IMG/VR virus record: IMGVR_UViG_3300033076_000601 | Span: 1 to 61,434 of that record | From: a virus | Lineage: Duplodnaviria; Caudoviricetes | Reading direction: 5' to 3' (one strand) | Length of the DNA stretch: 61,434 nt | In this document: positions 3,381 to 49,558 of the stretch, one piece after another | Position numbering within the stretch: position 1 is the stretch's first letter | Layout: each line of letters opens with the position of its first letter | The notes under the pieces: generated by a model | What the model was told of the DNA's origin: nothing | Database searches by the model: none | What the model saw: the letters and a program-made list of their open reading frames with translations, nothing else | Translations under genes and position numbers: made by a program

Positions 3381-3564
3381 GAGAGATATTTATTGAGTAA
3401 TGTTCATCAAATTCAAATTGGTCTGCATTGTTTGACCACCAACCACGTTGAAATGTCCTAAAATGTTGTTGTTTCTCAACATCTCTCATCTCGTTGTAAA
3501 GCTCAGAAGGAATATCAATCCCTTGTTGCTTTAACTTTCTTACAAATAAATCTAGTGCTGTCAT
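3367..3564 (-). CDS. Small protein, divergent member of the TAVEW...AKEME family
   Basis: MTALD...EMRDVEKQQ pattern. Confidence 0.5.
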   Translation of the reverse strand: MTALDLFVRKLKQQGIDIPSELYNEMRDVEKQQHFRTFQRGWWSNNADQFEFDEHYSINISHDKP

Positions 3565-3575
3565 AGCGTCATGTT

Positions 3576-3839
3576 TTAAAGGTTCTCAATTGCTTCTTGA
3601 TAGTCGTCGAAGAATGTCTCCTCGCCGTCCTCAAAGTCTGTTACTAAATACTCTACGTCATGCCCAAAGCATGAACAGATTGATATGCCGTTCTCTAAAT
3701 AGATGTACACATAGCCGCTATTCTCATTGAAGCCGATGTCCTCAATCTCTTCGCGGTGTGCGTTCTCTCTATAAGCCTTTAATACTAACTCGAGGCTTCT
3801 GATGTCTGATGTTCCTAGTTTATTGATTAGTTCTTTCAT
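3576..3839 (-). CDS. Hypothetical acidic protein
   Basis: ORF in operon (GFNENSGYVYI). Confidence 0.6.
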   Translation of the reverse strand: MKELINKLGTSDIRSLELVLKAYRENAHREEIEDIGFNENSGYVYIYLENGISICSCFGHDVEYLVTDFEDGEETFFDDYQEAIENL

Positions 3840-4169: not shown

Positions 4170-4495
4170 ATGACGAAACCTGTTAATATATGACGAAATT
4201 ATTAACAATATGACGGAAATATGACGAAATTATTTTCTGTATCCCTTACTGCTATTGACTTTATGACGAAATGACGACTTTTAGTCTTATTTATTAGAAA
4301 TAAAAAAAAGAGTATAACTTATAAGTTATACTATTTATATATATAATATATTTCTCTAGTATAGGGTTGAATTTTCGTCATATTGTCATAAACATATATA
4401 GAATAAGGGTTGTAGCGTTTTTCGGTCATTTTATTTTGTCATAAATCATTAGATTTCGTCATAAACGTAGTATTTACAATGGTTGTAGCGTCATA
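4170..4495. repeat. Putative replication origin: ATGACGAAA iterons, central palindrome, AT-rich core, inverted iterons
   Basis: Direct copies at 4170, 4190, 4210, 4221, 4263, 4271; perfect 22-bp palindrome 4311-4332; inverted or degenerate copies at 4373, 4383, 4421, 4434, 4454, 4488. Confidence 0.65.
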
Positions 4496-5750: not shown

Positions 5751-5884
5751 ACCTCATCGAGCGAATACCCGAAGCGACGTATGGCGAAGTTGATATAATT
5801 GTCTAGATGTTTCTTGTCGCTGAACTCGCGTCTAATCACAACGACCTTGCCGGCGCGATTAAAGAATTGAAGTGTTGCATTCAT
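5741..5884 (-). CDS. Small hypothetical protein (likely start MNATLQ at 5884)
   Basis: TAATG coupling to upstream ORF; track start 5968 is probably too long. Confidence 0.5.
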   Translation of the reverse strand: MNATLQFFNRAGKVVVIRREFSDKKHLDNYINFAIRRFGYSLDEVWY

Positions 5885-6006
5885 TAGATTGACATTCCTG
5901 ATGTTTGACCTACTACTACTTTGTATAAGGCGAATGCGATTGCAATGCCTACTGAACTTGCCATGCATATTTGGATGGCCTTTGCTAAAATGATTAGTGC
6001 TTTCAT
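5884..6006 (-). CDS. Small single-TM membrane protein (40 aa) directly downstream of the hammerhead
   Basis: Translated by hand: MKALIILAKAIQICMASSVGIAIAFALYKVVVGQTSGMSI; A-rich leader. Confidence 0.55.
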   Translation of the reverse strand: MKALIILAKAIQICMASSVGIAIAFALYKVVVGQTSGMSI

Positions 6007-6023
6007 GATTGTTTGTGTTAATT

Positions 6024-6090
6024 GGTTAAGACATGAGTGAGCTCGTGAACTCGCTCATGTTTCGACTATTGAAGTGCTCATCAGTTAACC
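6024..6090 (-). ncRNA. Type I hammerhead ribozyme
   Basis: Minus strand GGUUAA-CUGAUGA-G(C)ACU-UCAAU-AGUC-GAAAC-AUGAG...CUCAU-GUC-UUAACC: complete core, stems I-III; predicted cut between 6030 and 6029. Confidence 0.85.
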
Positions 6091-6284
6091 TTCTGTGGGT
6101 GCAATCTCCAAAAGTCGTTTGCACTTACAATGGTCTCATTGTAAGTAACCACCCAACCATTGTTGGTGTACTCGGTGCGATGCAATTTGTAGCGGATGTC
6201 CTGACGTCCGTTGTTGCCTTTCAATTGGTCAACTACCACCAACGTCCCGTTGATGATAGCTTTGAATGTTTGTAGTGTTGTCAT
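6081..6284 (-). CDS. Hypothetical early protein
   Basis: ORF whose UGA stop lies inside the hammerhead core. Confidence 0.6.
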   Translation of the reverse strand: MTTLQTFKAIINGTLVVVDQLKGNNGRQDIRYKLHRTEYTNNGWVVTYNETIVSANDFWRLHPQKVN

Positions 6285-6424
6285 TGTTTTGGGTGTGTTA
6301 ATTGGTTAGCGAATAAGCCAAAGTTGGCTATTGTTTGTTTTGAAATGTTGGTTCTACCTTTCATGATTTCGTAAGCAACCATTGCATCTATCAATGATTG
6401 CTTCATGTTGATTCTTTCGTGCAT
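6281..6424 (-). CDS. Small early protein (47 aa, MHERINMKQ...)
   Basis: Translated by hand; TAATG and ATGA coupling on both sides. Confidence 0.5.
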   Translation of the reverse strand: MHERINMKQSLIDAMVAYEIMKGRTNISKQTIANFGLFANQLTHPKQ

Positions 6425-40063: not shown

Positions 40064-43000
40064 ATGGAAAACGAATGGACACCACCAAGTGATGCAGTAG
40101 AGGCAACTTCATCTTTTGTTCCTCCATCTGACGCAGTAAAAAAAAAAGATCTTACGGCATCTGGATCGGTAAAACCTTCATTGGCAAGATCATCGACCAC
40201 AACAACTATAAAGCCTACGGTATCTTCAGTTTCAAAAGGAAAAGCTGACGGTATATATTCTTTTCCTGGTGAAGATAATGCCATTTACAAAAAAGAGAAT
40301 GGGCAGTGGTTTAAGTCGTTTAAGGGTGAGTATAAGTACTATCCAATTACAAAAGGTGACGTCCAAAACCGAATTCAATCACTCGAGAAAAACGCTCAAT
40401 CTTTAGAAAATTATAGCTTTGAAAAACCAGAGCCAGAAATGCCCGAAGTTCCTAAAGAACTACAAGGAGATAGAAATACTATAGAATATTGGGATAAATT
40501 ACTAGCAGCTGGAAAAATAAATAAGAAGACTTATGACTATCACGCTGATAGAATTTCATCATCTGACTTAGAAAAGTCAGTTGTTAAATCTGCCGCTGTA
40601 AAACCTAAACCACTAACAGAGACGCAGAAAAAAGAGCAAGAGGCTTTTGATAAATCATTCGGTGTTGTTTCAGAGGCTGAGTATCAAAAAAGAAAGGCAG
40701 AATCTGACGTAATTGATGCTAAGGTAAGTCAAATTACTTCTGATCTAATAGATTATAGTGAAGGAGATGTAGTTCCAAAAGTACAAGAACTTATTAAAGA
40801 TTACCCATATTTGCAAGTATCTGAATCTGGTGCTGGGTATGATGAGCTTGAGATTAAAAACGTTATTACTGGAGAAAGTAAAAAAATAAATTTAGATAAC
40901 TGGACTTCAGATAGAGATAAAGAAGAGGCTAAAAGACTGCAAGGTTTTTTAGATATTCAGATGACATCGAAAGACTATGTAGAGCAATTTGACAAAGTAA
41001 ACAAACTTAAGGTTAAAATATCTACAGCCACACCTACTGAAAGAATAGAATTATCTCAAAAATTATTAGAGGAACAGGCTAAATTAACAGATTTAAAAAA
41101 CATTAGATATAATAAAGCAAAGTCTGATAAATATAAAGCTGCTGCTATCTATGACAAGAACGCAAAGGAAAATATTAAGACTGAATTTGCTAAGCTTCAA
41201 ATACAATCTATTGACTACGCTGAAAAAGCTAAAGACTATTCAGATTGGGCAAAAACTGTTAATGATGCTAAGTCAAAAGGTTTAATTACTCAAGAGCAAT
41301 ATGATTTAGAATATGCTCCTAAATTAGCTCAAGAAAAAAACATGCTCATTGAAGAAAAAAATAAAATCAATGAGAACTTTAGACAGACACAATTTGAAAG
41401 CACCTCTATAGATAATATTGCGGCTGATAACTTTGCTATTGAAGCAGAGAGAGGTAATATACTTACAGGTACGGCATTTTCTGCATTGCAGGGAGCTGAG
41501 AATTCTCTTAGATTTTTACTTGAGACAGGACCTTTTGAGCAAGGTGATTTCAAGGGATTACTTACAGAAGCTGCACCTGGATCCATTAGTGATGTATATA
41601 CATCATCTGAAGGTAGAAATGCTTTAGAACAAATTGTATTTGGATTAGCCAACTCAGGTGGATCAGCTTTAGTTGGTGCAGCTACAGGAGCTTCATGGTT
41701 AGGTCTATACGCCTCTTCATATGTAAATATGAAAGACCAGATGAGTACACCTGAATTTGCAGATGTGCCTGAATACCAAAAGATATTAATGTCTGGTGTT
41801 TATGGTAGTACTATTGGTCTTCTAGAAGCATATGGTGTTGGTAAATGGTTTCAAAAAACACCTGCCGGGAAGGGGCTTACTAATTGGATTTTAAAAAGAA
41901 CTATTGCAGAACTTGGTAAAGATGCAACAACAGAAGCAATTGAATTAGGTATAAAGAAAAATTTAAAAGCAGCTATAACAAATGGTCTTATTCAAGTAAC
42001 TGCATCTGGTCTTGTTGAAGGATCAACAGAGCTTGCTCAAGAGGCTGCCGATATGGTTTATAAGGATGTATTTAATAGACTAGCTGATAAAGAATACTTT
42101 GAAAATCCAGACTCGTGGGCTGGAGTTGCTGACAGATTAAGTCAGTCCTTTTTACTTGGTTTTGCTGGTGGTGCCGGAATGAATGCAATAAGCCAGACTA
42201 CTCAGATTGCAAAAAATGAACTTACTAAATCTCAGATTAATAACATTTCTCAATTGATTAATGATCCTGACTTATATGATACTTTCAAGCTTAATCTAAA
42301 AGACCAAATACTTTCTGGACAAATATCAAAAGATGAGGCTAAACGCCAAGTTGCAAAGATTAATGAACTAGAGGGTACCTTAAATAAAATACCAAGCAAG
42401 GTAGATAAATTTGAGGCGTTTAAGTTGATCACCGAGAGAGATGAATTACAAAAAGAAATTGCAGGGAAAGACCCTGCTCTTGTCGCAGCTCAAACAGAGC
42501 GCGTCAATGCTATCAATGATGAATTAAAACAATTAAGTTATGCCGTTCAAGAGCAAGCAACAAGTGAAGTACCTGTACAGCCAGGAGCCGCAGTTAGCGG
42601 AAAAGTGGAGGAAAGAAAACCCGAAACAGGACTTGAAGAAACTACCCAAGAAGGTGAAAAAGTAACTGCACAGATTAATGTAGCTCCTTTATTTGATACC
42701 AAAGTAACTAACGTTCAAGAAGCAGAAGCCATTAGACAGTCTGATATGTATAAAACATATAAAAATGACATGGTCAAAACTGCAGATACATTTGGAGTCA
42801 CTGTTGATGGTATTGATGATACTATTGGCGGATATCAAGGAACCTCAGAAGTTTCTACAGTAGTTAATGTAACCGGCGATTGGAATAATATAATTGAGTT
42901 TGCTGCAGTATATGGAGCAATGACTCCAGAAGTACAAGACTCAACTATTGCCGGTAGAACTGTAAAAGCAGGAACTACCGAACATAATACTGATCGATTA

Positions 43001-46000
43001 GATATTGGCATTGATAATCAAGAAGCAGCATTAAAAGCTGCAAACGATTCAGGATTTAGTGATGATGGATTTACTATATCTGGAGATAAAATAATGTTTT
43101 TTAGCGATTTAAAGGAGCCAATTGCTAATTTTGATGATAAATACGTTACATTTGTAAACAAATACATAGAATATGGAGGAAAAATTACCTCAGAAAGTAG
43201 ATATGCCGCTCAAACAGAATTCATCAACTCAGACAGAAGGGCAGAAATCCTTACAAAGATTGAAGGAGATGCAGTACAGCGAGCCGGACGGGAAGGCATT
43301 CGTGATGTCGTCAAAAGTGCAACGCCAAGAAACGAAGAATATAGAAACAGAAGAAGACGGTCTGAGAGCAGGAAACTTACGCCTCTTGAGGGCGCGCCAG
43401 CAGTTCCAGGCATTAACGGGCCGGACCCACAACTTGTTGCAGTCGCAGAAAAGTACGCAGCCGACAATGGCATCGAACTCAAAAGACAGTCAGAGTACGT
43501 CGAAGTAGACGAGCAAAGGGCCAAAAGAATAGCCGACGCTTACGAGCAGATGGCTGATAATCCTCAGGATCCAAAAGTAAAAGAAGCATACCAAGATCTT
43601 ATAAACCAAACAATTGCTCAGTATCAAGCGTTAGTTGACGCCGGGTATAAGTTTTGGTTTATGGACTTAAATATTCCAAGCAATGAAGAGTATGCAGCAA
43701 GCCCATACAATGCTCTAAGAGATTTAAGACAGAATAAGGAGATGGGTGTATTCCCAACTACTGATGGATACGGAGAAGGTGAAATAACACAAGAACAAAT
43801 TAATGCAAACCCACTACTAGCCGACACAGGTATTAAATGGCCTGTAGGTGGATTAGATGGAGAAATGAAACCAGTACTTGCAAATGACTTGTTCAGAGCA
43901 GTTCATGATGCGTTTGGTCATGGTCTCGAGGGGGCTGGGTTTAGAGCAAGAGGCGAGGAGAATGCATGGCAAGCTCACGTCAGATTGTTTACAGGACCTG
44001 CAGTCGGAGCTATTACTAGTGAGACTAGAGGCCAGAACTCTTGGTTAAATTATGGTCCTTTTGGAGAAACCAATAGAACAGCCAAAGTAGAAGACACTGT
44101 ATTTGCTGATCAGAAGATTGGCCTTATGCCTGAGTGGACTTGGTCTGAAGGTCGTGCAGGTGATATGACTTATCAAGATAATCTAGTAACTAATGACAAC
44201 ATCAATGATATAATTGATAGTCAAGATATAGAGACTAGACAAAAAATAGCTAAAAGTGCTAAGCTTGTAATGATGGCTATTCCTGAAGCAAAAATTTATC
44301 TTCATAATAATACAGCTGAATATGATGCAGCCGTAGGTGAGCAAACTAAAGGAAAAGAAAAAGGAAGATTTATTGGAACTGATATGGCTATCCATGTTAA
44401 TATGGAGGAAGCTACTTCTCACACACTATTACACGAAGCATTCCATTATGTTATTCTTAATAAAGGAATAGATGCAAAAGTACTTAATGATTGGACAAGA
44501 TCACTTAAATCTATTATCAAAGATGAAAAAGCAATTAAGCGTCTTGATGATTTGACTAAAAAATACTCTGCAGAAAACCAACCGGAGGAATACATTTCAG
44601 AATTAGGCGCTATTATGGGCGCAGCGAAAGGACAATTAAGTACAAGTGCGTTACAAAAATTTAAAGCACTAATCAATAAGATCGCAAAAGCAATTGGATT
44701 ACCACCAATATTTACAGCGGCATCTACAAGACAAGATGCGGTTGATTTCATTAATACTATAAGTAAGCAGTTGATTACTGGTGATCAGATCTTTGCTAAT
44801 GGATTCCAAACAAGGATTGTGCCAGCCGATTTGGCCCCTAAAAAGCAAGTAAAAGTATCTGAAGATCAAAAACTTACATTTGTTAAGCAGTCAGATATTA
44901 TAGATTTTAAAGCACTTGTTAATAACATTGTATCTAAAGATCAAAATGTTTGGTTTTGGGTTGCTGACCAACTTGGGCGTGGAATGTACTCAGATGCAGA
45001 AATAAATGGCGAACATTATTTAGATGCAGGTCCGTCATATGCATTAGATCCTGAAAATAGAAAGGAAGGTATTATATGGGCATCTGGTAAATCAAAAGCA
45101 GATTTACAAAAATCAATTAATGATAGTGATTATATATTTATTATAAGTGGATCACCGCAGATATCTAAATTATTTAATAAATCTGTATTTGATTTGTATG
45201 CTAAAAAGATAGGTGATTACAAATCTTTTAAAGATAAATTGTTAAAATTAGGAACAGTTAAAGCAATAAGAGATGTATTAGATGCGCATGATTCATGGGA
45301 TTCTATTATGGAAGACGCGTCAGTAGATAATCCAAAAACAAAAAAAATAGGTACAGGACGTAAAAAATTATTAGTTGCTTTAAATGAATCATTAAAAAAA
45401 CCTAATTCATCAACATATAAAGTACTTGAAAGTTTAAATGCCATAATTGATATTAACTCACTTAGAGATGGATTCTATTTAGAAAATAATTTCGAAATGG
45501 GAGATGTAATGCTTGTATTAAAACCAACTGGTGTTGGGGGTAAAGCAAATCATTCTACATATGAAAATAATATACTAGGTGAAGTTATTGGTGTTCCAGA
45601 TATTATTGTAAACTCATTTGATATTATGCCTGAAGATGTGCGTAATAAATATAAAAATAGCATAGAAAGATCACAACAACAACAAACGGTTGCTCCATAT
45701 GGTTCTGGAATTAAAAAAATTCAACAAGTACCAAACATCAAAAAACAAAAAGGATTTAGCAAGCAAGAGGCTATTAGAAAAGCCAAAGAAAAATATGTAC
45801 TATCTGTAAAGGAAAGAGGTAACACACCAGAACAGGGTGTCACTTCAGCGCTTGAGGACTTGAGAAAGTCAGAGTGGTATAATGAGGCTGATGACTTAAT
45901 GAGAGAAGAAGTTGAAAGAGAGCTTAAGAAATTCTTCGGTGAGAAAATGAAAGCAGCTCCTTCTATCAAAAAAGTAATGGCTATTAAGCCTACTAAGATT

Positions 46001-49000
46001 CAAGTTGAGGAAATGGCAGCACTCAAGTCACAAATTAGACTTGAAGCTAAAGCAGCTCGTGAAGCTAAGGGTGACCTGAATGCCAAAAGAAAAGCACTTG
46101 CAGCTGTCATCACCGGTATGGTGAGACAGGGCAAGATAACAGCCGTTCAGGCAAGAAGTATTATCAACAAGGTAAGTAGAGTGAACCTTGACAACCCTGT
46201 GATGGTTGATCGATTGATCAGCTATGCCGAGAGAGTGTTTGACAGAGCTGACTACCAAGAAACATTAAGCAAGGCAGCCAAGATCAGAAAGTCAATCAAA
46301 AAAGCCATGAAGTCAAAGGACCTACAGGCCGAGGTGGCTGGTGTAGCCAAGAGATTCTCTGGTGTTGATCCGTTTATGGTTGAGGATATTGATCAGTACA
46401 TTGAGACAGCTGAGAAAATGTTGAATGCCGTCAGACCTGTCAGAGAGACAGAGGTGCCGCTTCGACAAGCTACTGATATTTACGAGATTAACGAATATGC
46501 GACAGCTCAGATTGAACGTCAAGAGGCGAATAAAAAAGCTGAATTACTTGCGCTGAATAAGTATTTAGTAGACGCAGGCATCATTACTGACGACATGACT
46601 GCCAAGGAGATCCAAGAGATGATCGATATCATTGCAGCTGAGGAATATGAGGTTGAAGATGCTGCTAATAAATTAATTTTCTTAAAAAGCCGCTTTAATT
46701 TTATGGCTGGTATAATAGAAGAGATGATTGTGAATAACAGAGATGTGTTTACAGATGAGCCTCTTTACATAACTCAGAACGAAAAACAACTAATGAGTGA
46801 GGTTCTTAAGTTTGACATCGATAAGTTGTCAGTTAAGCAAGCCGCTCAAGTTCTCGAGGCGATGGATAACTTCATTAACAACGGAATTACTAGTGGCCTT
46901 GAAGCTGTGGTAAAAGGATATATTGGAAATGAGAACGCTAACAAACTAGCTGCATCTGGCCTTAAGTCAAGACCACTAAAAATGTATTGGAACAAAGCTG
47001 TTGGTCGTTTCTTTGGTGAGCAGTTCGTTTCATTGCCATTACTTATTGAGAGAATGTTCCCAGGTATGAAGAAGGGTCTTAAGCTTATGTCTGAGATGGG
47101 ACTTACTGATGTAATCAGAGGTGTATCCAAAGCTGACAGAGAGCACAAGATGATCGTAAAAGATTATACTGGTCAGGATTTTTCTAAAGGTAAAGGATTC
47201 ATGAAGGCTGAGAATGTATACGAGAGAGGTATGATTGCCTTCTTGAGTAGAAATTTAGCCGGAACCAAAACAGAAATGCGTAACGAATTCTTACGTCGCA
47301 TCAAGATGGTTGAGGAGTCTATCAATGCCCTGATGACTGGATCAGAGACAGAAAGAAAAATGGGTGAAGCTTATCAGAAAGTATATGACAAGCTGAAAGT
47401 TGATAGCCAGGATCTTGATGTTATTAAGGCCAATGCTGAGCAGATGAACCTTGATGCTGTTGATTGGATGACACAGCAATGGGCTGAAAAATATAGCGAC
47501 CTATCTGACATTAGTTTGTCTGTATACAACGCAATACTTGGTAGCGATACCAACTATACCCCGGATAGATATAAAGCGCTTGACGAGGCTGATATAGAGC
47601 TAGATGAGAATTTATTGCAGAAAGGCAGCGCGTTTATGGGTGGTCTTGAGTACACTGACAAGAATAAGTCAGGTGTATTGATCGAGACAACTAGACCAAA
47701 GGCATTGCCGAAAGGTCGTTTTGTTAGTCTTGACTTTGATGTCAATAATTTCTCTAGCCTAAAAGGCGCAATGATTGACATTGAGACAGCTCCAGCTATT
47801 CGCCAAGTTGATGGATTTATCAAGTCAGACGGATACAAGAAAATGATCAATGGTGACGATAGAAAAATTCTTACTCGTCGTATCAATAACTATATCATTT
47901 CTGTAAAAGGAAAGACTAGCTTCAATCGAGACAGCATGAGATCAGTTGAGCGATTAGCCAATTTCTTAGGTAGTCTTGGTGTTGGCAAGGCATTAGGGGG
48001 ACTAGACCAAACAATAAAACAGACAGCTCCGGTTATTATAAACACATTGATTAATGCCGGTCGTTTTGATGGTCTTAACTTTGAAATGAATGCAGCTATC
48101 AACCGATCAGGTATGCCGATTGCCAATCGTGGTATTGAGGCTATATCAGGTGTTGAATCTGTTGATGCGTTGATTGATAAGAAAGGAGCAACAGCTGCTG
48201 AGATAGCTAAAGGCATTGAGAAGGTTAGTCAGATTTACATGAAAGCCTTATTGTCTAAGCCAGACGTATGGGTTGCTCGATCTTCATTTATTTCTTACTA
48301 TAAGAATTATTTAAAGACAAAAGGAATATCAACTAACATTGACTGGAAAACACATGAGTGGAATCAGGATGCATTAAACTATGCTCAGATGATGGTTGAC
48401 CGTCAGCAAAACATTTCAGATGAGAAACTAGCTGGTTCATTTATGAGCTCTCCTGATCCTTGGAAAAGCGTGACTAGAAAAGTTATGCTTCCATTTGCTA
48501 CGTTTATCATCAACCAAAAGAACCGTATGCATAATGACTTTGTGGCTTTATTTGGTAGAGGTGCTGAGACTAGTATTGAGGATAGAAAAAGAGCAGCTCG
48601 TTCTTTGATTGGATTAAGTGCAGAGATGCTTGCATATCAAGCAATTGCTTATTTCATTAAGACTCAAATTTATGACAATTTAGCTTCTATGATCACTGGA
48701 GAAGATGATGAGGAAGAGAAAAAAGAACGTTCATTCTTTGGTATTAAAATGACTAATAAGCAATGGAACGCGACTAAGTTTCCTGTTAAGAGTTTAATCT
48801 CTGATATTGTATCTCCATTCCCATTATTTGATGACGCTGTAGTATTTGGCTTTGATGAGTTGATGAGTAATTTCCCAATGATATCTGATGAAGATATTAA
48901 GAAAGCTATACAGGATCAAAATGATGCAAGAGCACTTAAAGGTCAAGATCCAATGGATGCTGAGCAAGAAGCTAATCTAATTAAGAATCTTAAAGACAAG

Positions 49001-49558
49001 AACACATACGCTGTAACATTCCAAAATGAAAGCTTGGGTCGTCAGTATGGTGTCCCTGGAATTGCATTCGACACATATACTGAGCTAGCTGAGATGGCAC
49101 AACTTGCTTATACAGGTGAGTTTGAGGATGACATGGGATTCGGTCCAAAGAAAAAATACATCAGCAAGAAAGACCAAGAGCTTGTCAAGTGGACATTACT
49201 GCCAATGGTTCTATACTCAACAGGACTTGTACCTAAAGATGCTGGTGTTGTATCTAGAAAGGTAGTTAATACAGTCAAGAAGAGATCAATTAGCGAGACT
49301 AAGTTTAAGAACACTAACGAGCTAAAGACTGAACTTGGCCGTAAGCCAAAAGATTGGGAGGAAAGTTTGGTGATGAATACCACTAAGAAGGTACCTACAA
49401 TTGTGGAGGCCATTAAATTTGCCGAAAGATTTGGCGGCCTGACAGAAAGTCAAGGCAAAGAATACGCCAAACTAATAGAAGTTACCGGTGATTATGGTTA
49501 CCTAGACTTGAAGAGAATTCAAGACGGTGAAACGGCTGATCAGATATTAAAGAAGTAA
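40064..49558 (+). CDS. Giant (3164 aa) polyvalent-type internal virion protein with zincin-like HExxH domain
   Basis: TLLHEAFH...EEY, FRAVHDAFGH...GEENAW domain, hydrophobic segments, last gene of late strand. Confidence 0.7.
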   Translation: MENEWTPPSDAVEATSSFVPPSDAVKKKDLTASGSVKPSLARSSTTTTIKPTVSSVSKGKADGIYSFPGEDNAIYKKENGQWFKSFKGEYKYYPITKGDVQNRIQSLEKNAQSLENYSFEKPEPEMPEVPKELQGDRNTIEYWDKLLAAGKINKKTYDYHADRISSSDLEKSVVKSAAVKPKPLTETQKKEQEAFDKSFGVVSEAEYQKRKAESDVIDAKVSQITSDLIDYSEGDVVPKVQELIKDYPYLQVSESGAGYDELEIKNVITGESKKINLDNWTSDRDKEEAKRLQGFLDIQMTSKDYVEQFDKVNKLKVKISTATPTERIELSQKLLEEQAKLTDLKNIRYNKAKSDKYKAAAIYDKNAKENIKTEFAKLQIQSIDYAEKAKDYSDWAKTVNDAKSKGLITQEQYDLEYAPKLAQEKNMLIEEKNKINENFRQTQFESTSIDNIAADNFAIEAERGNILTGTAFSALQGAENSLRFLLETGPFEQGDFKGLLTEAAPGSISDVYTSSEGRNALEQIVFGLANSGGSALVGAATGASWLGLYASSYVNMKDQMSTPEFADVPEYQKILMSGVYGSTIGLLEAYGVGKWFQKTPAGKGLTNWILKRTIAELGKDATTEAIELGIKKNLKAAITNGLIQVTASGLVEGSTELAQEAADMVYKDVFNRLADKEYFENPDSWAGVADRLSQSFLLGFAGGAGMNAISQTTQIAKNELTKSQINNISQLINDPDLYDTFKLNLKDQILSGQISKDEAKRQVAKINELEGTLNKIPSKVDKFEAFKLITERDELQKEIAGKDPALVAAQTERVNAINDELKQLSYAVQEQATSEVPVQPGAAVSGKVEERKPETGLEETTQEGEKVTAQINVAPLFDTKVTNVQEAEAIRQSDMYKTYKNDMVKTADTFGVTVDGIDDTIGGYQGTSEVSTVVNVTGDWNNIIEFAAVYGAMTPEVQDSTIAGRTVKAGTTEHNTDRLDIGIDNQEAALKAANDSGFSDDGFTISGDKIMFFSDLKEPIANFDDKYVTFVNKYIEYGGKITSESRYAAQTEFINSDRRAEILTKIEGDAVQRAGREGIRDVVKSATPRNEEYRNRRRRSESRKLTPLEGAPAVPGINGPDPQLVAVAEKYAADNGIELKRQSEYVEVDEQRAKRIADAYEQMADNPQDPKVKEAYQDLINQTIAQYQALVDAGYKFWFMDLNIPSNEEYAASPYNALRDLRQNKEMGVFPTTDGYGEGEITQEQINANPLLADTGIKWPVGGLDGEMKPVLANDLFRAVHDAFGHGLEGAGFRARGEENAWQAHVRLFTGPAVGAITSETRGQNSWLNYGPFGETNRTAKVEDTVFADQKIGLMPEWTWSEGRAGDMTYQDNLVTNDNINDIIDSQDIETRQKIAKSAKLVMMAIPEAKIYLHNNTAEYDAAVGEQTKGKEKGRFIGTDMAIHVNMEEATSHTLLHEAFHYVILNKGIDAKVLNDWTRSLKSIIKDEKAIKRLDDLTKKYSAENQPEEYISELGAIMGAAKGQLSTSALQKFKALINKIAKAIGLPPIFTAASTRQDAVDFINTISKQLITGDQIFANGFQTRIVPADLAPKKQVKVSEDQKLTFVKQSDIIDFKALVNNIVSKDQNVWFWVADQLGRGMYSDAEINGEHYLDAGPSYALDPENRKEGIIWASGKSKADLQKSINDSDYIFIISGSPQISKLFNKSVFDLYAKKIGDYKSFKDKLLKLGTVKAIRDVLDAHDSWDSIMEDASVDNPKTKKIGTGRKKLLVALNESLKKPNSSTYKVLESLNAIIDINSLRDGFYLENNFEMGDVMLVLKPTGVGGKANHSTYENNILGEVIGVPDIIVNSFDIMPEDVRNKYKNSIERSQQQQTVAPYGSGIKKIQQVPNIKKQKGFSKQEAIRKAKEKYVLSVKERGNTPEQGVTSALEDLRKSEWYNEADDLMREEVERELKKFFGEKMKAAPSIKKVMAIKPTKIQVEEMAALKSQIRLEAKAAREAKGDLNAKRKALAAVITGMVRQGKITAVQARSIINKVSRVNLDNPVMVDRLISYAERVFDRADYQETLSKAAKIRKSIKKAMKSKDLQAEVAGVAKRFSGVDPFMVEDIDQYIETAEKMLNAVRPVRETEVPLRQATDIYEINEYATAQIERQEANKKAELLALNKYLVDAGIITDDMTAKEIQEMIDIIAAEEYEVEDAANKLIFLKSRFNFMAGIIEEMIVNNRDVFTDEPLYITQNEKQLMSEVLKFDIDKLSVKQAAQVLEAMDNFINNGITSGLEAVVKGYIGNENANKLAASGLKSRPLKMYWNKAVGRFFGEQFVSLPLLIERMFPGMKKGLKLMSEMGLTDVIRGVSKADREHKMIVKDYTGQDFSKGKGFMKAENVYERGMIAFLSRNLAGTKTEMRNEFLRRIKMVEESINALMTGSETERKMGEAYQKVYDKLKVDSQDLDVIKANAEQMNLDAVDWMTQQWAEKYSDLSDISLSVYNAILGSDTNYTPDRYKALDEADIELDENLLQKGSAFMGGLEYTDKNKSGVLIETTRPKALPKGRFVSLDFDVNNFSSLKGAMIDIETAPAIRQVDGFIKSDGYKKMINGDDRKILTRRINNYIISVKGKTSFNRDSMRSVERLANFLGSLGVGKALGGLDQTIKQTAPVIINTLINAGRFDGLNFEMNAAINRSGMPIANRGIEAISGVESVDALIDKKGATAAEIAKGIEKVSQIYMKALLSKPDVWVARSSFISYYKNYLKTKGISTNIDWKTHEWNQDALNYAQMMVDRQQNISDEKLAGSFMSSPDPWKSVTRKVMLPFATFIINQKNRMHNDFVALFGRGAETSIEDRKRAARSLIGLSAEMLAYQAIAYFIKTQIYDNLASMITGEDDEEEKKERSFFGIKMTNKQWNATKFPVKSLISDIVSPFPLFDDAVVFGFDELMSNFPMISDEDIKKAIQDQNDARALKGQDPMDAEQEANLIKNLKDKNTYAVTFQNESLGRQYGVPGIAFDTYTELAEMAQLAYTGEFEDDMGFGPKKKYISKKDQELVKWTLLPMVLYSTGLVPKDAGVVSRKVVNTVKKRSISETKFKNTNELKTELGRKPKDWEESLVMNTTKKVPTIVEAIKFAERFGGLTESQGKEYAKLIEVTGDYGYLDLKRIQDGETADQILKK
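42540..42665 (+). CDS. Nested +1-frame small basic protein MPFKSKQQVKYLYSQEPQLAEKWRKENPKQDLKKLPKKVKK
   Basis: Translated by hand; A-rich upstream; resembles recalled MPFKS..Q..YL....P..A.KW phage peptides. Confidence 0.55.
   Translation: MPFKSKQQVKYLYSQEPQLAEKWRKENPKQDLKKLPKKVKK

Follow-up and report, generated by a model that had tools for sequence, protein, structure and literature searches.

The window analysed here is a whole IMG/VR virus record (IMGVR_UViG_3300033076_000601; 61,434 bases, estimated complete) assigned to the Caudoviricetes. Its genes between 82 and 6534 all lie on the minus strand as a block of tightly packed small ORFs, and one junction within this block holds a candidate hammerhead ribozyme. 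The features of the junction, in the direction of transcription, are:

6081..6284, minus strand: upstream gene, encoding a 67-aa protein, conserved in 14 related contigs
6024..6090, minus strand: complete type I hammerhead of 67 nt, read from the sequence, with the predicted cut between C17 (6030) and U1.1 (6029)
6007..6029, minus strand: leader that the cut would leave on the downstream gene, 23 nt, A-rich and G-free in sequence
5884..6006, minus strand: downstream gene, encoding a 40-aa hydrophobic peptide, membrane-like and single-pass by a hydrophobic 19-mer test, conserved in relatives

The terminase is closest to that of an uncultured podovirus (69% identity), with phages of Flavobacterium, Cellulophaga, Tenacibaculum and Maribacter at ~44%; among named phages, blastn found nothing that matches a 1.1-kb region around the junction. 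Several other features of the window are recorded here as observations. The spacer of the minus-strand gene block at 4170–4490 is dense in direct and inverted repeats (core ATGACGAAA / TTTCGTCAT), which could be protein-binding sites or an origin-like region. A 3164-aa ORF (40064–49558, plus strand) ends the structural block, its sole PHROGs match being short and to a family of unknown function. Two unusually long Rfam tRNA matches lie on the minus strand at 52521–52603 and 52688–52810 (83 and 123 nt; 46.8 and 35 bits), and ARAGORN calls only the tRNA at 52521–52603, with its anticodon undetermined.

Read on the minus strand from 6090 to 6024, the element runs GGUUAA-CUGAUGA-G[C]ACU-UCAAU-AGUC-GAAA-(stem III hairpin)-GUC-UUAACC, the bulged nucleotide being bracketed. 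It divides into the following segments, numbered by the standard hammerhead nomenclature of the field:

6090-6085, minus strand: 5′ strand of stem I, GGUUAA, following an A at 6091 that is invariant in the family
6084-6078, minus strand: catalytic core C3–A9, CUGAUGA, of which 6083-6081 doubles as the UGA stop of the upstream ORF
6077-6064, minus strand: stem II region of 14 nt, comprising G10.1, the bulged C (6076), ACU, loop UCAAU, AGU and C11.1
6063-6060, minus strand: G12 A13 A14 A15.1 (GAAA)
6059-6032, minus strand: stem III hairpin, with 6 bp, a C/A mismatch, 4–5 bp and a loop
6031, minus strand: U16.1
6030, minus strand: C17, with predicted cleavage at 6030/6029
6029-6024, minus strand: 3′ strand of stem I, UUAACC, the 6 nt with which the predicted 3′ product begins

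All nucleotides of the conserved hammerhead core are present (C3 U4 G5 A6 N7 G8 A9, G12 A13 A14, A15.1–U16.1 and H17). Three helices surround them: stems II and III are closed by loops, and stem I (6 bp) is open. Stem II is built of 1 + 3 bp interrupted by a 1-nt bulge; in stem III, 7 bp (counting A15.1–U16.1) are followed by 4–5 more and a 6-nt hairpin loop. Unpaired A residues sit at 6091 and 6023, on the two sides of stem I. The initial annotation had described this anatomy, and each of its elements can be read directly from the minus strand: the type I core nucleotides (CUGAUGA, GAAA, U 6031 and C 6030), a 6-bp stem I, a bulged stem II, a long stem III, and a stop codon of ORF 6081..6284 that is the first UGA of CUGAUGA (U4-G5-A6). 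The A-rich leader that it placed before the peptide gene is likewise there, the ATG at 6006 lying 23 nt past the predicted cut, and 6007..6029 contains no Shine–Dalgarno (SD) motif. The 15-mer TAACCAATTAACACA, covering the stem I 3′ strand and the start of the leader (6014–6028), recurs exactly on the minus strand at 6294–6308, in the 3′ end of ORF 6281..6424 and just upstream of the start of the 67-aa gene. This copy may be left over from a second ribozyme/leader cassette.

Two other readings of the stem III hairpin were rejected. As a terminator it would have no U-tract downstream, and a terminator scan made no call there. The presence of the 3164-aa ORF had raised the idea of an N4-like hairpin promoter; PHROGs gave no RNA polymerase match, the terminase has its relatives among podophages of Flavobacterium and Cellulophaga, and the 6-nt-loop hairpin forms part of a covarying ribozyme stem.

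Descriptor scans of both window strands, loose settings included, return the candidate site as the single match. Chance expectation was gauged on 1,500 dinucleotide-preserving shuffles of the window, with descriptors defined by the minimum stems I/II/III. A loose descriptor (3/2/3) found a match in 265 of the 1,500 shuffles, a medium one (4/3/3) in 59 and one as strict as the candidate (6/4/6) in none. By rough extrapolation, chance could build such a motif around an existing hairpin about once per ~250,000 windows scanned, so the shuffle statistic alone is not decisive. These figures leave room for a chance resemblance built around an ordinary hairpin, such as a terminator or an RNase III site, a reading that Rfam at first sight also favours. 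At gathering thresholds the Rfam hammerhead models gave no match at the candidate site, and at E ≤ 10 it was reported neither in a 301-nt slice nor, for RF00163, over the whole genome. This silence weighs little and reflects the thresholds rather than the site, because canonical members of the family described below are themselves sub-threshold, at 19.9–29.5 bits against RF00163 (cut-off 34) and 24.9–28.6 bits against the RAGATH-1 hammerhead, RF03152 (cut-off 56.3). What settles the question of chance is comparative evidence from the family.

A first scan of IMG/VR used the pattern CTGATGAG..CGAAAC..GTCTTAACC, which combines the core with the beginning of stem III and the 3′ strand of the candidate's stem I. 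It returned at least 129 stretches, representing at least 115 distinct ribozymes. The stem I 5′ strand was left free by the pattern; among the matches listed it is complementary in all 115, being GGTTAA in 113 and a variant that allows G-U pairing in the other 2. Stem II is a 4-bp helix with a 5-nt U...U loop (a 13-nt region) in 96 of the 115 listed, formed by 26 different complementary strand pairs, and the candidate's loop UCAAU is common, being found in 10 of these 96. Inserting one C after G10.1 of the family's GACUUCAAUAGUC (found in L041 and L062, among others) gives the candidate's own stem II, whose region is 14 nt long instead of the usual 13. Four other members (L016, L022, L034 and L120) have a 1-nt bulge at the same place within different stem sequences.

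Covariation was assessed in alignment A2, which holds 104 of the 115 distinct ribozymes, the candidate type and 10 others with long inserts having been set aside. In it, 98.2% of cells pair, with 350 double-change cells as against 90 in shuffles (none of 500 shuffles reaches the observed value). Sliding the partner strand by 1–3 columns drops pairing to 20–42%, and the free positions in stems II and III show 4–6 pair types apiece. A second scan, in which the core and stem II frame were fixed and stem I was free, gave at least 127 stretches and at least 134 distinct matches. Among the matches listed, 132 of 134 are complete type I hammerheads, each with exactly 6 bp in stem I, whose sequences are many (GGTTAA 22, GGCTAA 9, GTCAAA 9 and others). 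The rows of alignment A3 were chosen for six stem I pairs, a number that 132 of the 134 unselected listed matches had anyway; in A3 stem I covaries at all six pairs. Taking both alignments, pairing is 98–100%, as against 20–42% in slid controls, and none of 500 shuffles equals the covariation seen. An unpaired A flanks stem I on both sides, at 99% each among the matches listed (for the A just before the 5′ strand, at −1, 99% of 123 occurrences; A at −7 in 133 of 134 distinct second-scan matches). Together with the U-NNN-U loop II of the family, which the candidate combines with the same flanking As, this pattern is an indirect, sequence-level sign of a putative tertiary contact between stem I and loop II, of the kind on which type I hammerheads depend at physiological Mg2+.

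A covariance model built from A2 (R1), with the candidate type left out, scores the candidate at 57 bits (E 2.6e-13), and one built from A3 (R2) scores it at 47.6 bits (E 4.9e-10), aligning it end to end from 6091 to 6023; both E-values are rough, owing to shortened calibration. In each search the candidate is the only match in the window. There is some circularity in R1, whose rows were gathered by a pattern taken from the candidate's core and stem I. The candidate cannot match the pattern that collected A3, since its stem II region is 14 nt long. It also fits the family layout, with small ORFs flanking it on the same strand and the next ATG 23 nt past the predicted cut. The Infernal check suggested in the initial annotation has thus split, failing with the Rfam hammerhead models and succeeding with family covariance models, and the type I identity that it was meant to check is upheld by the family's covariation and by models built without the candidate. 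By sequence comparison, the candidate is not a chance motif and belongs to a large, mostly unannotated phage family. With these E-values, more than 100 homologues with covarying stems, and neither a terminator call nor a following U-tract at stem III, the chance reading is refuted for practical purposes.

The family stands close to RF00163 (clan CL00010). The two share the core CUGAUGA, GAAA, A15.1–U16.1 and C17, a three-way junction, an open 6-bp stem I and a 4-bp stem II, and one family member (L039) aligns to RF00163 end to end at 29.5 bits. They differ in that the family falls below the 34-bit cut-off and has the U-NNN-U loop II and a stem I flanked at either end by an invariant unpaired A; the candidate, with its longer stem III and bulged C in stem II, gives no match at all. 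RAGATH-1 provides the family's best partial Rfam matches; its stem II (GACUU...) is similar, and its stem III is also long. Its upstream hairpin is missing from the alignments of family members examined, however, the scores are far below 56.3 bits, and the candidate type gives no match.

The fold of this particular copy is poor by family standards. Adopting the hammerhead fold costs it 3.8 kcal/mol relative to the free ensemble, as against a family median of 0.61 (rank 114 of 115 among the matches listed), a cost that stems from the extra C at 6076 beside G10.1–C11.1. In its minimum free energy (MFE) fold, core nucleotides pair with the 3′ strand of stem II. Given the bulged C in stem II, the modelled fold makes slower cleavage of this copy likely. 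RNA-labelled sequencing runs, a label that is mostly guessed, add some assembled material: four such runs yield assembled pieces from relatives only, and a 201-nt contig starts at 6036 rather than at the cleavage site, assembled contigs being sequences that carry no RNA ends. Aligned with window 6059–6092, contig record 3 of run X15 (an RNA-labelled metagenome), which comes from another phage and is a further family member, has the same ribozyme 5′ half minus the bulged C of 6076, and a different stem III.

The junction can be followed through close relatives. The 67-aa upstream protein is conserved in 14 related viral loci (63–90% identity); at the same junction the ribozyme is present in four of them (L002, L004, L005 and L006), disrupted in L003 and absent from nine (L007–L015). 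In L007–L013, which lack it, the two genes overlap as ATGA or stand ≤2 nt apart. In L004, L005 and L006 (two distinct sequences) the ribozyme is identical to that of the window at 67 of 67 positions, with flanking ORFs identical at 174–178 of 196 and 107–109 of 123–128 positions (84–91%). L002 departs from the window only inside stem III, where CAUGAG...CUCAUG has become CAUGGG..CCCAUG (one compensatory pair, A-U to G-C) and the inner hairpin has been swapped for a shorter one, giving CAUGGGC-UCCG-GCCCAUG overall. This pair and the replaced inner hairpin are the whole of the covariation seen at this locus itself. In L003, an unrelated, ORF-less insert of ~460 nt (412–875) replaces the 3′ two-thirds of the hammerhead, so that only the 5′ third is kept; the edges retain GGTTAACTGATGAGCAG on the 5′ side and GTAACCAATTAACAC on the 3′ side, before the peptide gene. 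The insert has no Rfam match at E ≤ 10, no tRNA and no ORF ≥50 aa, and its fold z is −1.73. In the complete genomes of two relatives, G007 and G008, no family member was found at E ≤ 0.01. With nine of the 14 related loci lacking the element, L003 disrupted and these two complete genomes without any, the element is dispensable.

Dispensability and a poor fold could together describe a copy in decay, in which the ribozyme, its weak and A-U-rich stem II upset by the bulged C, has become slow or inactive and the element persists as a neutral spacer or hairpin. The second-worst fold penalty of the 115 listed matches, the competing MFE fold, the nine relatives whose junction works without a ribozyme, the loss of two-thirds of it from L003, and the two complete relatives with none all favour such a reading. 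The bulged form has nevertheless been kept without change in three loci whose flanking ORFs diverge by ~10–15%, where ~6–7 changes would be expected in 67 nt at ~10% divergence, and L002 is also unchanged outside stem III. Bulges at the same place in four further members, each within a different stem sequence, likewise argue against decay, which we regard as rather unlikely.

The pattern of presence and absence bears on a further possibility, that ribozyme and leader form a selfish or modular linker at a recombination boundary, moving small early genes between phages, with cleavage secondary. The presence or absence of the element is clean at a single junction among close relatives, and the element is identical between genomes with differing flanks. 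L014 and L015 carry (at 3561–3638 in both) a divergent hammerhead whose stem I is GAUUAG/CUAAUC and whose N7 is C, with a branched stem III of two hairpins and the UAG stop of its upstream ORF inside stem I; although it sits at a gene junction different from the window's, it is followed by the same 23-nt leader and a homologue of the 40-aa membrane peptide gene. Complete genomes (~60–67 kb, n = 5) hold 1–4 family copies each, clustered within 1–2 kb, and the stem I/leader 15-mer recurs at 6294–6308 of the window. Set against this, no target-site duplication or transposase was seen, and the catalytic nucleotides are strictly conserved while all stems covary, which points to selection on the RNA fold and not merely to DNA homology. 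We hold a mobile cassette to be very unlikely as the main account.

The layout around family members is strikingly regular. We surveyed the 126 listed occurrences with enough flank, taking as upstream ORF any same-strand ORF ≥40 aa. Its stop falls at the UAA of stem I in 28 of these, at the UGA of the core in 25, in loop II in 7, 8–16 nt before C3 in 45 and farther upstream in 5, with no such ORF within reach in 16. The upstream ORF of the window ends at +1 relative to C3. With 53 of the 126 listed occurrences stopping at the stem I UAA or the core UGA, a stop in the catalytic core is a common family arrangement and not special to this locus. The arrangement fits either compaction or function.

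One function that it suggests, raised in the initial annotation, is gating by ribosomes: those terminating at the core UGA would keep stem I and the core unfolded, and the RNA would cut itself only when the upstream ORF is untranslated. The stop codon here is U4-G5-A6 itself. Among the matches listed, 60 of 110 upstream ORFs stop inside the ribozyme and 45 more stop 8–16 nt before C3. From stops at these positions a terminating ribosome would, given the usual size of its footprint, mostly cover stem I, and the weak fold of the candidate copy would be easy to outcompete. The same layout is, however, predicted by simple compaction of phage genes, and stop triplets exist in the conserved stem I and core for structural reasons. 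Gating is speculative and unlikely, and we keep to self-cleavage without it as the preferred reading.

On the downstream side, the next ATG-initiated ORF begins 18–24 nt past the predicted cut in 101 of the 126 listed occurrences. A second count, again among the matches listed, gave this spacing in 95 of 117 cases on the sense strand, as against 2 of 117 on the antisense strand and 5 of 117 at random positions. The leaders are G-poor and A-rich (of those listed, 76% have A at −3 and 83% have it at −12), and an SD-like 4-mer occurs in 8 of the 118 listed. The downstream proteins are small (median ~66 aa), and 15 of 103 listed have a membrane-like hydrophobic stretch.

Such leaders are compatible with Bacteroidota hosts, in which particular upstream nucleotide positions matter for initiation. 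Genes of this phylum go without SD sequences, and mRNA structure together with the nucleotides upstream tunes their initiation, according to the accessible portion of one report (PMC6847099). Bacterial genome contigs, in which most matches are due to chance, offer a weak hint towards the same host. There, 21 of 121 matches to a 16-base pattern, which is expected by chance in 596 Gb, are complete hammerheads; those in titled bacterial loci are from Bacteroidota in 6 of 12 cases, the remainder being scattered metagenome-assembled genomes of other phyla. A divergent, family-like hammerhead is also found in the cultured Flavobacterium phage vB_FspP_elemoF_6-3D (NC_055853.1, 16045–16102, minus strand; L147:1501–1558), between the minus-strand genes gp67 and gp65. 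It scores 32.7 bits with R1 and has a poor stem II. The plus-strand 35-aa CDS gp66 annotated over this copy is probably spurious, and short plus-strand ‘hypothetical’ ORFs called in spacers of this kind can be artefacts.

Phage hammerheads have been known since 2011, and their purpose is still called open in the available part of a later account (PMC6765202). As far as the accessible text of the 2011 work goes (Perreault et al. 2011, PMC3088659), hammerheads of phages and prophages flank genes and cleave ~2-kb polycistronic constructs in vitro, and the role proposed for them is to cut polycistronic RNA into gene-length mRNAs. The clustered examples in that text resemble the present family in being intergenic, co-directional with short genes and present several to a gene block, with the same proposed role; they come from prophages of Agrobacterium, Azorhizobium and Clostridium, among others, whereas the family here is found in uncultured phages. 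The same portion of the report describes HHphage of haloviruses HF1 and HF2, which lies 13 nt before a start codon and has a mapped 5′ end within 3 nt of its cleavage site (PMC3088659). HHphage thus shares a position a few nt upstream of an early gene start, and its transcript's 5′ end adjoins the cut. It differs in belonging to an archaeal virus, in having a core variant that needs high Mg2+ and in standing at the first ORF of the transcript, not between ORFs (PMC3088659, same portion). Hammerheads of eukaryotic RNA viruses offer a looser likeness: they too are type I, have a long helix III and stand immediately before a coding region, and there as here ribozyme-made 5′ ends might serve translation. 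The comparison is one of ideas only, cap-independent initiation there being likened to bacterial SD-less initiation here. We found no description of the fixed 18–24-nt spacing to the start codon, or of a link to SD-less phages, in the literature covered by our search, subscription papers and supplements being outside its scope.

We consider it probable, at roughly three chances in four, that the element is a genuine minus-strand type I hammerhead of the small-gene block, which cuts itself at 6030/6029 and uncouples the two cistrons. Once polycistronic RNA is made, stems I–III would fold around the CUGAUGA, GAAA and GUC core, and the RNA would cut itself after C17. Hammerhead cleavage leaves a 2′,3′-cyclic phosphate and a 5′-OH. 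Because of the type I topology, the ribozyme body and the upstream stop would stay on the 5′ product, so that the upstream piece would retain the 67-aa ORF with its stop codon and end in the complete, structured ribozyme bearing the cyclic phosphate. The downstream piece would begin with 5′-OH-UUAACC, as part of a 23-nt unstructured, A-rich, SD-less leader before the membrane peptide gene. The ribozyme would in this way separate the peptide gene from the 67-aa ORF both physically and translationally, in contrast to relatives with overlapping genes. We infer cleavage of this copy, the chemistry of its ends and any effects on mRNA stability and translation from these features. The self-processing of an early polycistron put forward in the initial annotation therefore agrees with the role already proposed for phage hammerheads in the accessible part of PMC3088659, while ‘early’ is a matter of gene order only.

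A broader reading extends to the family as a whole, which might be a device for uncoupling cistrons and starting translation in SD-ignoring (Bacteroidota-type) hosts. Type I topology would have been selected since the folded ribozyme stays on the upstream mRNA as a 3′ cap. A bare 5′-OH end ~22 nt before the AUG, with an unstructured, A-rich leader, would recruit the ribosome to the internal cistron, and the moment of the cut would be set by ribosomes that terminate within stem I or the core. Taken jointly, these parts make a decidedly unlikely whole.

The locus itself adds a member to a known kind of element, phage hammerheads with a proposed processing role already in print, and the regularities of the family are the more interesting by-product. 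The family has probably been missed by routine Rfam-based annotation, as it falls below Rfam thresholds. Its ribozyme bodies abut or contain the upstream stop, and their predicted cuts lie 18–24 nt before the next start, followed by SD-less leaders; so regular a layout makes the question of function testable. Close relatives provide natural on and off variants of the same junction, and the bulged form offers a naturally weakened version to compare. If the broader reading were true, phage hammerheads would have a defined job, as ribozyme-made translation start sites.
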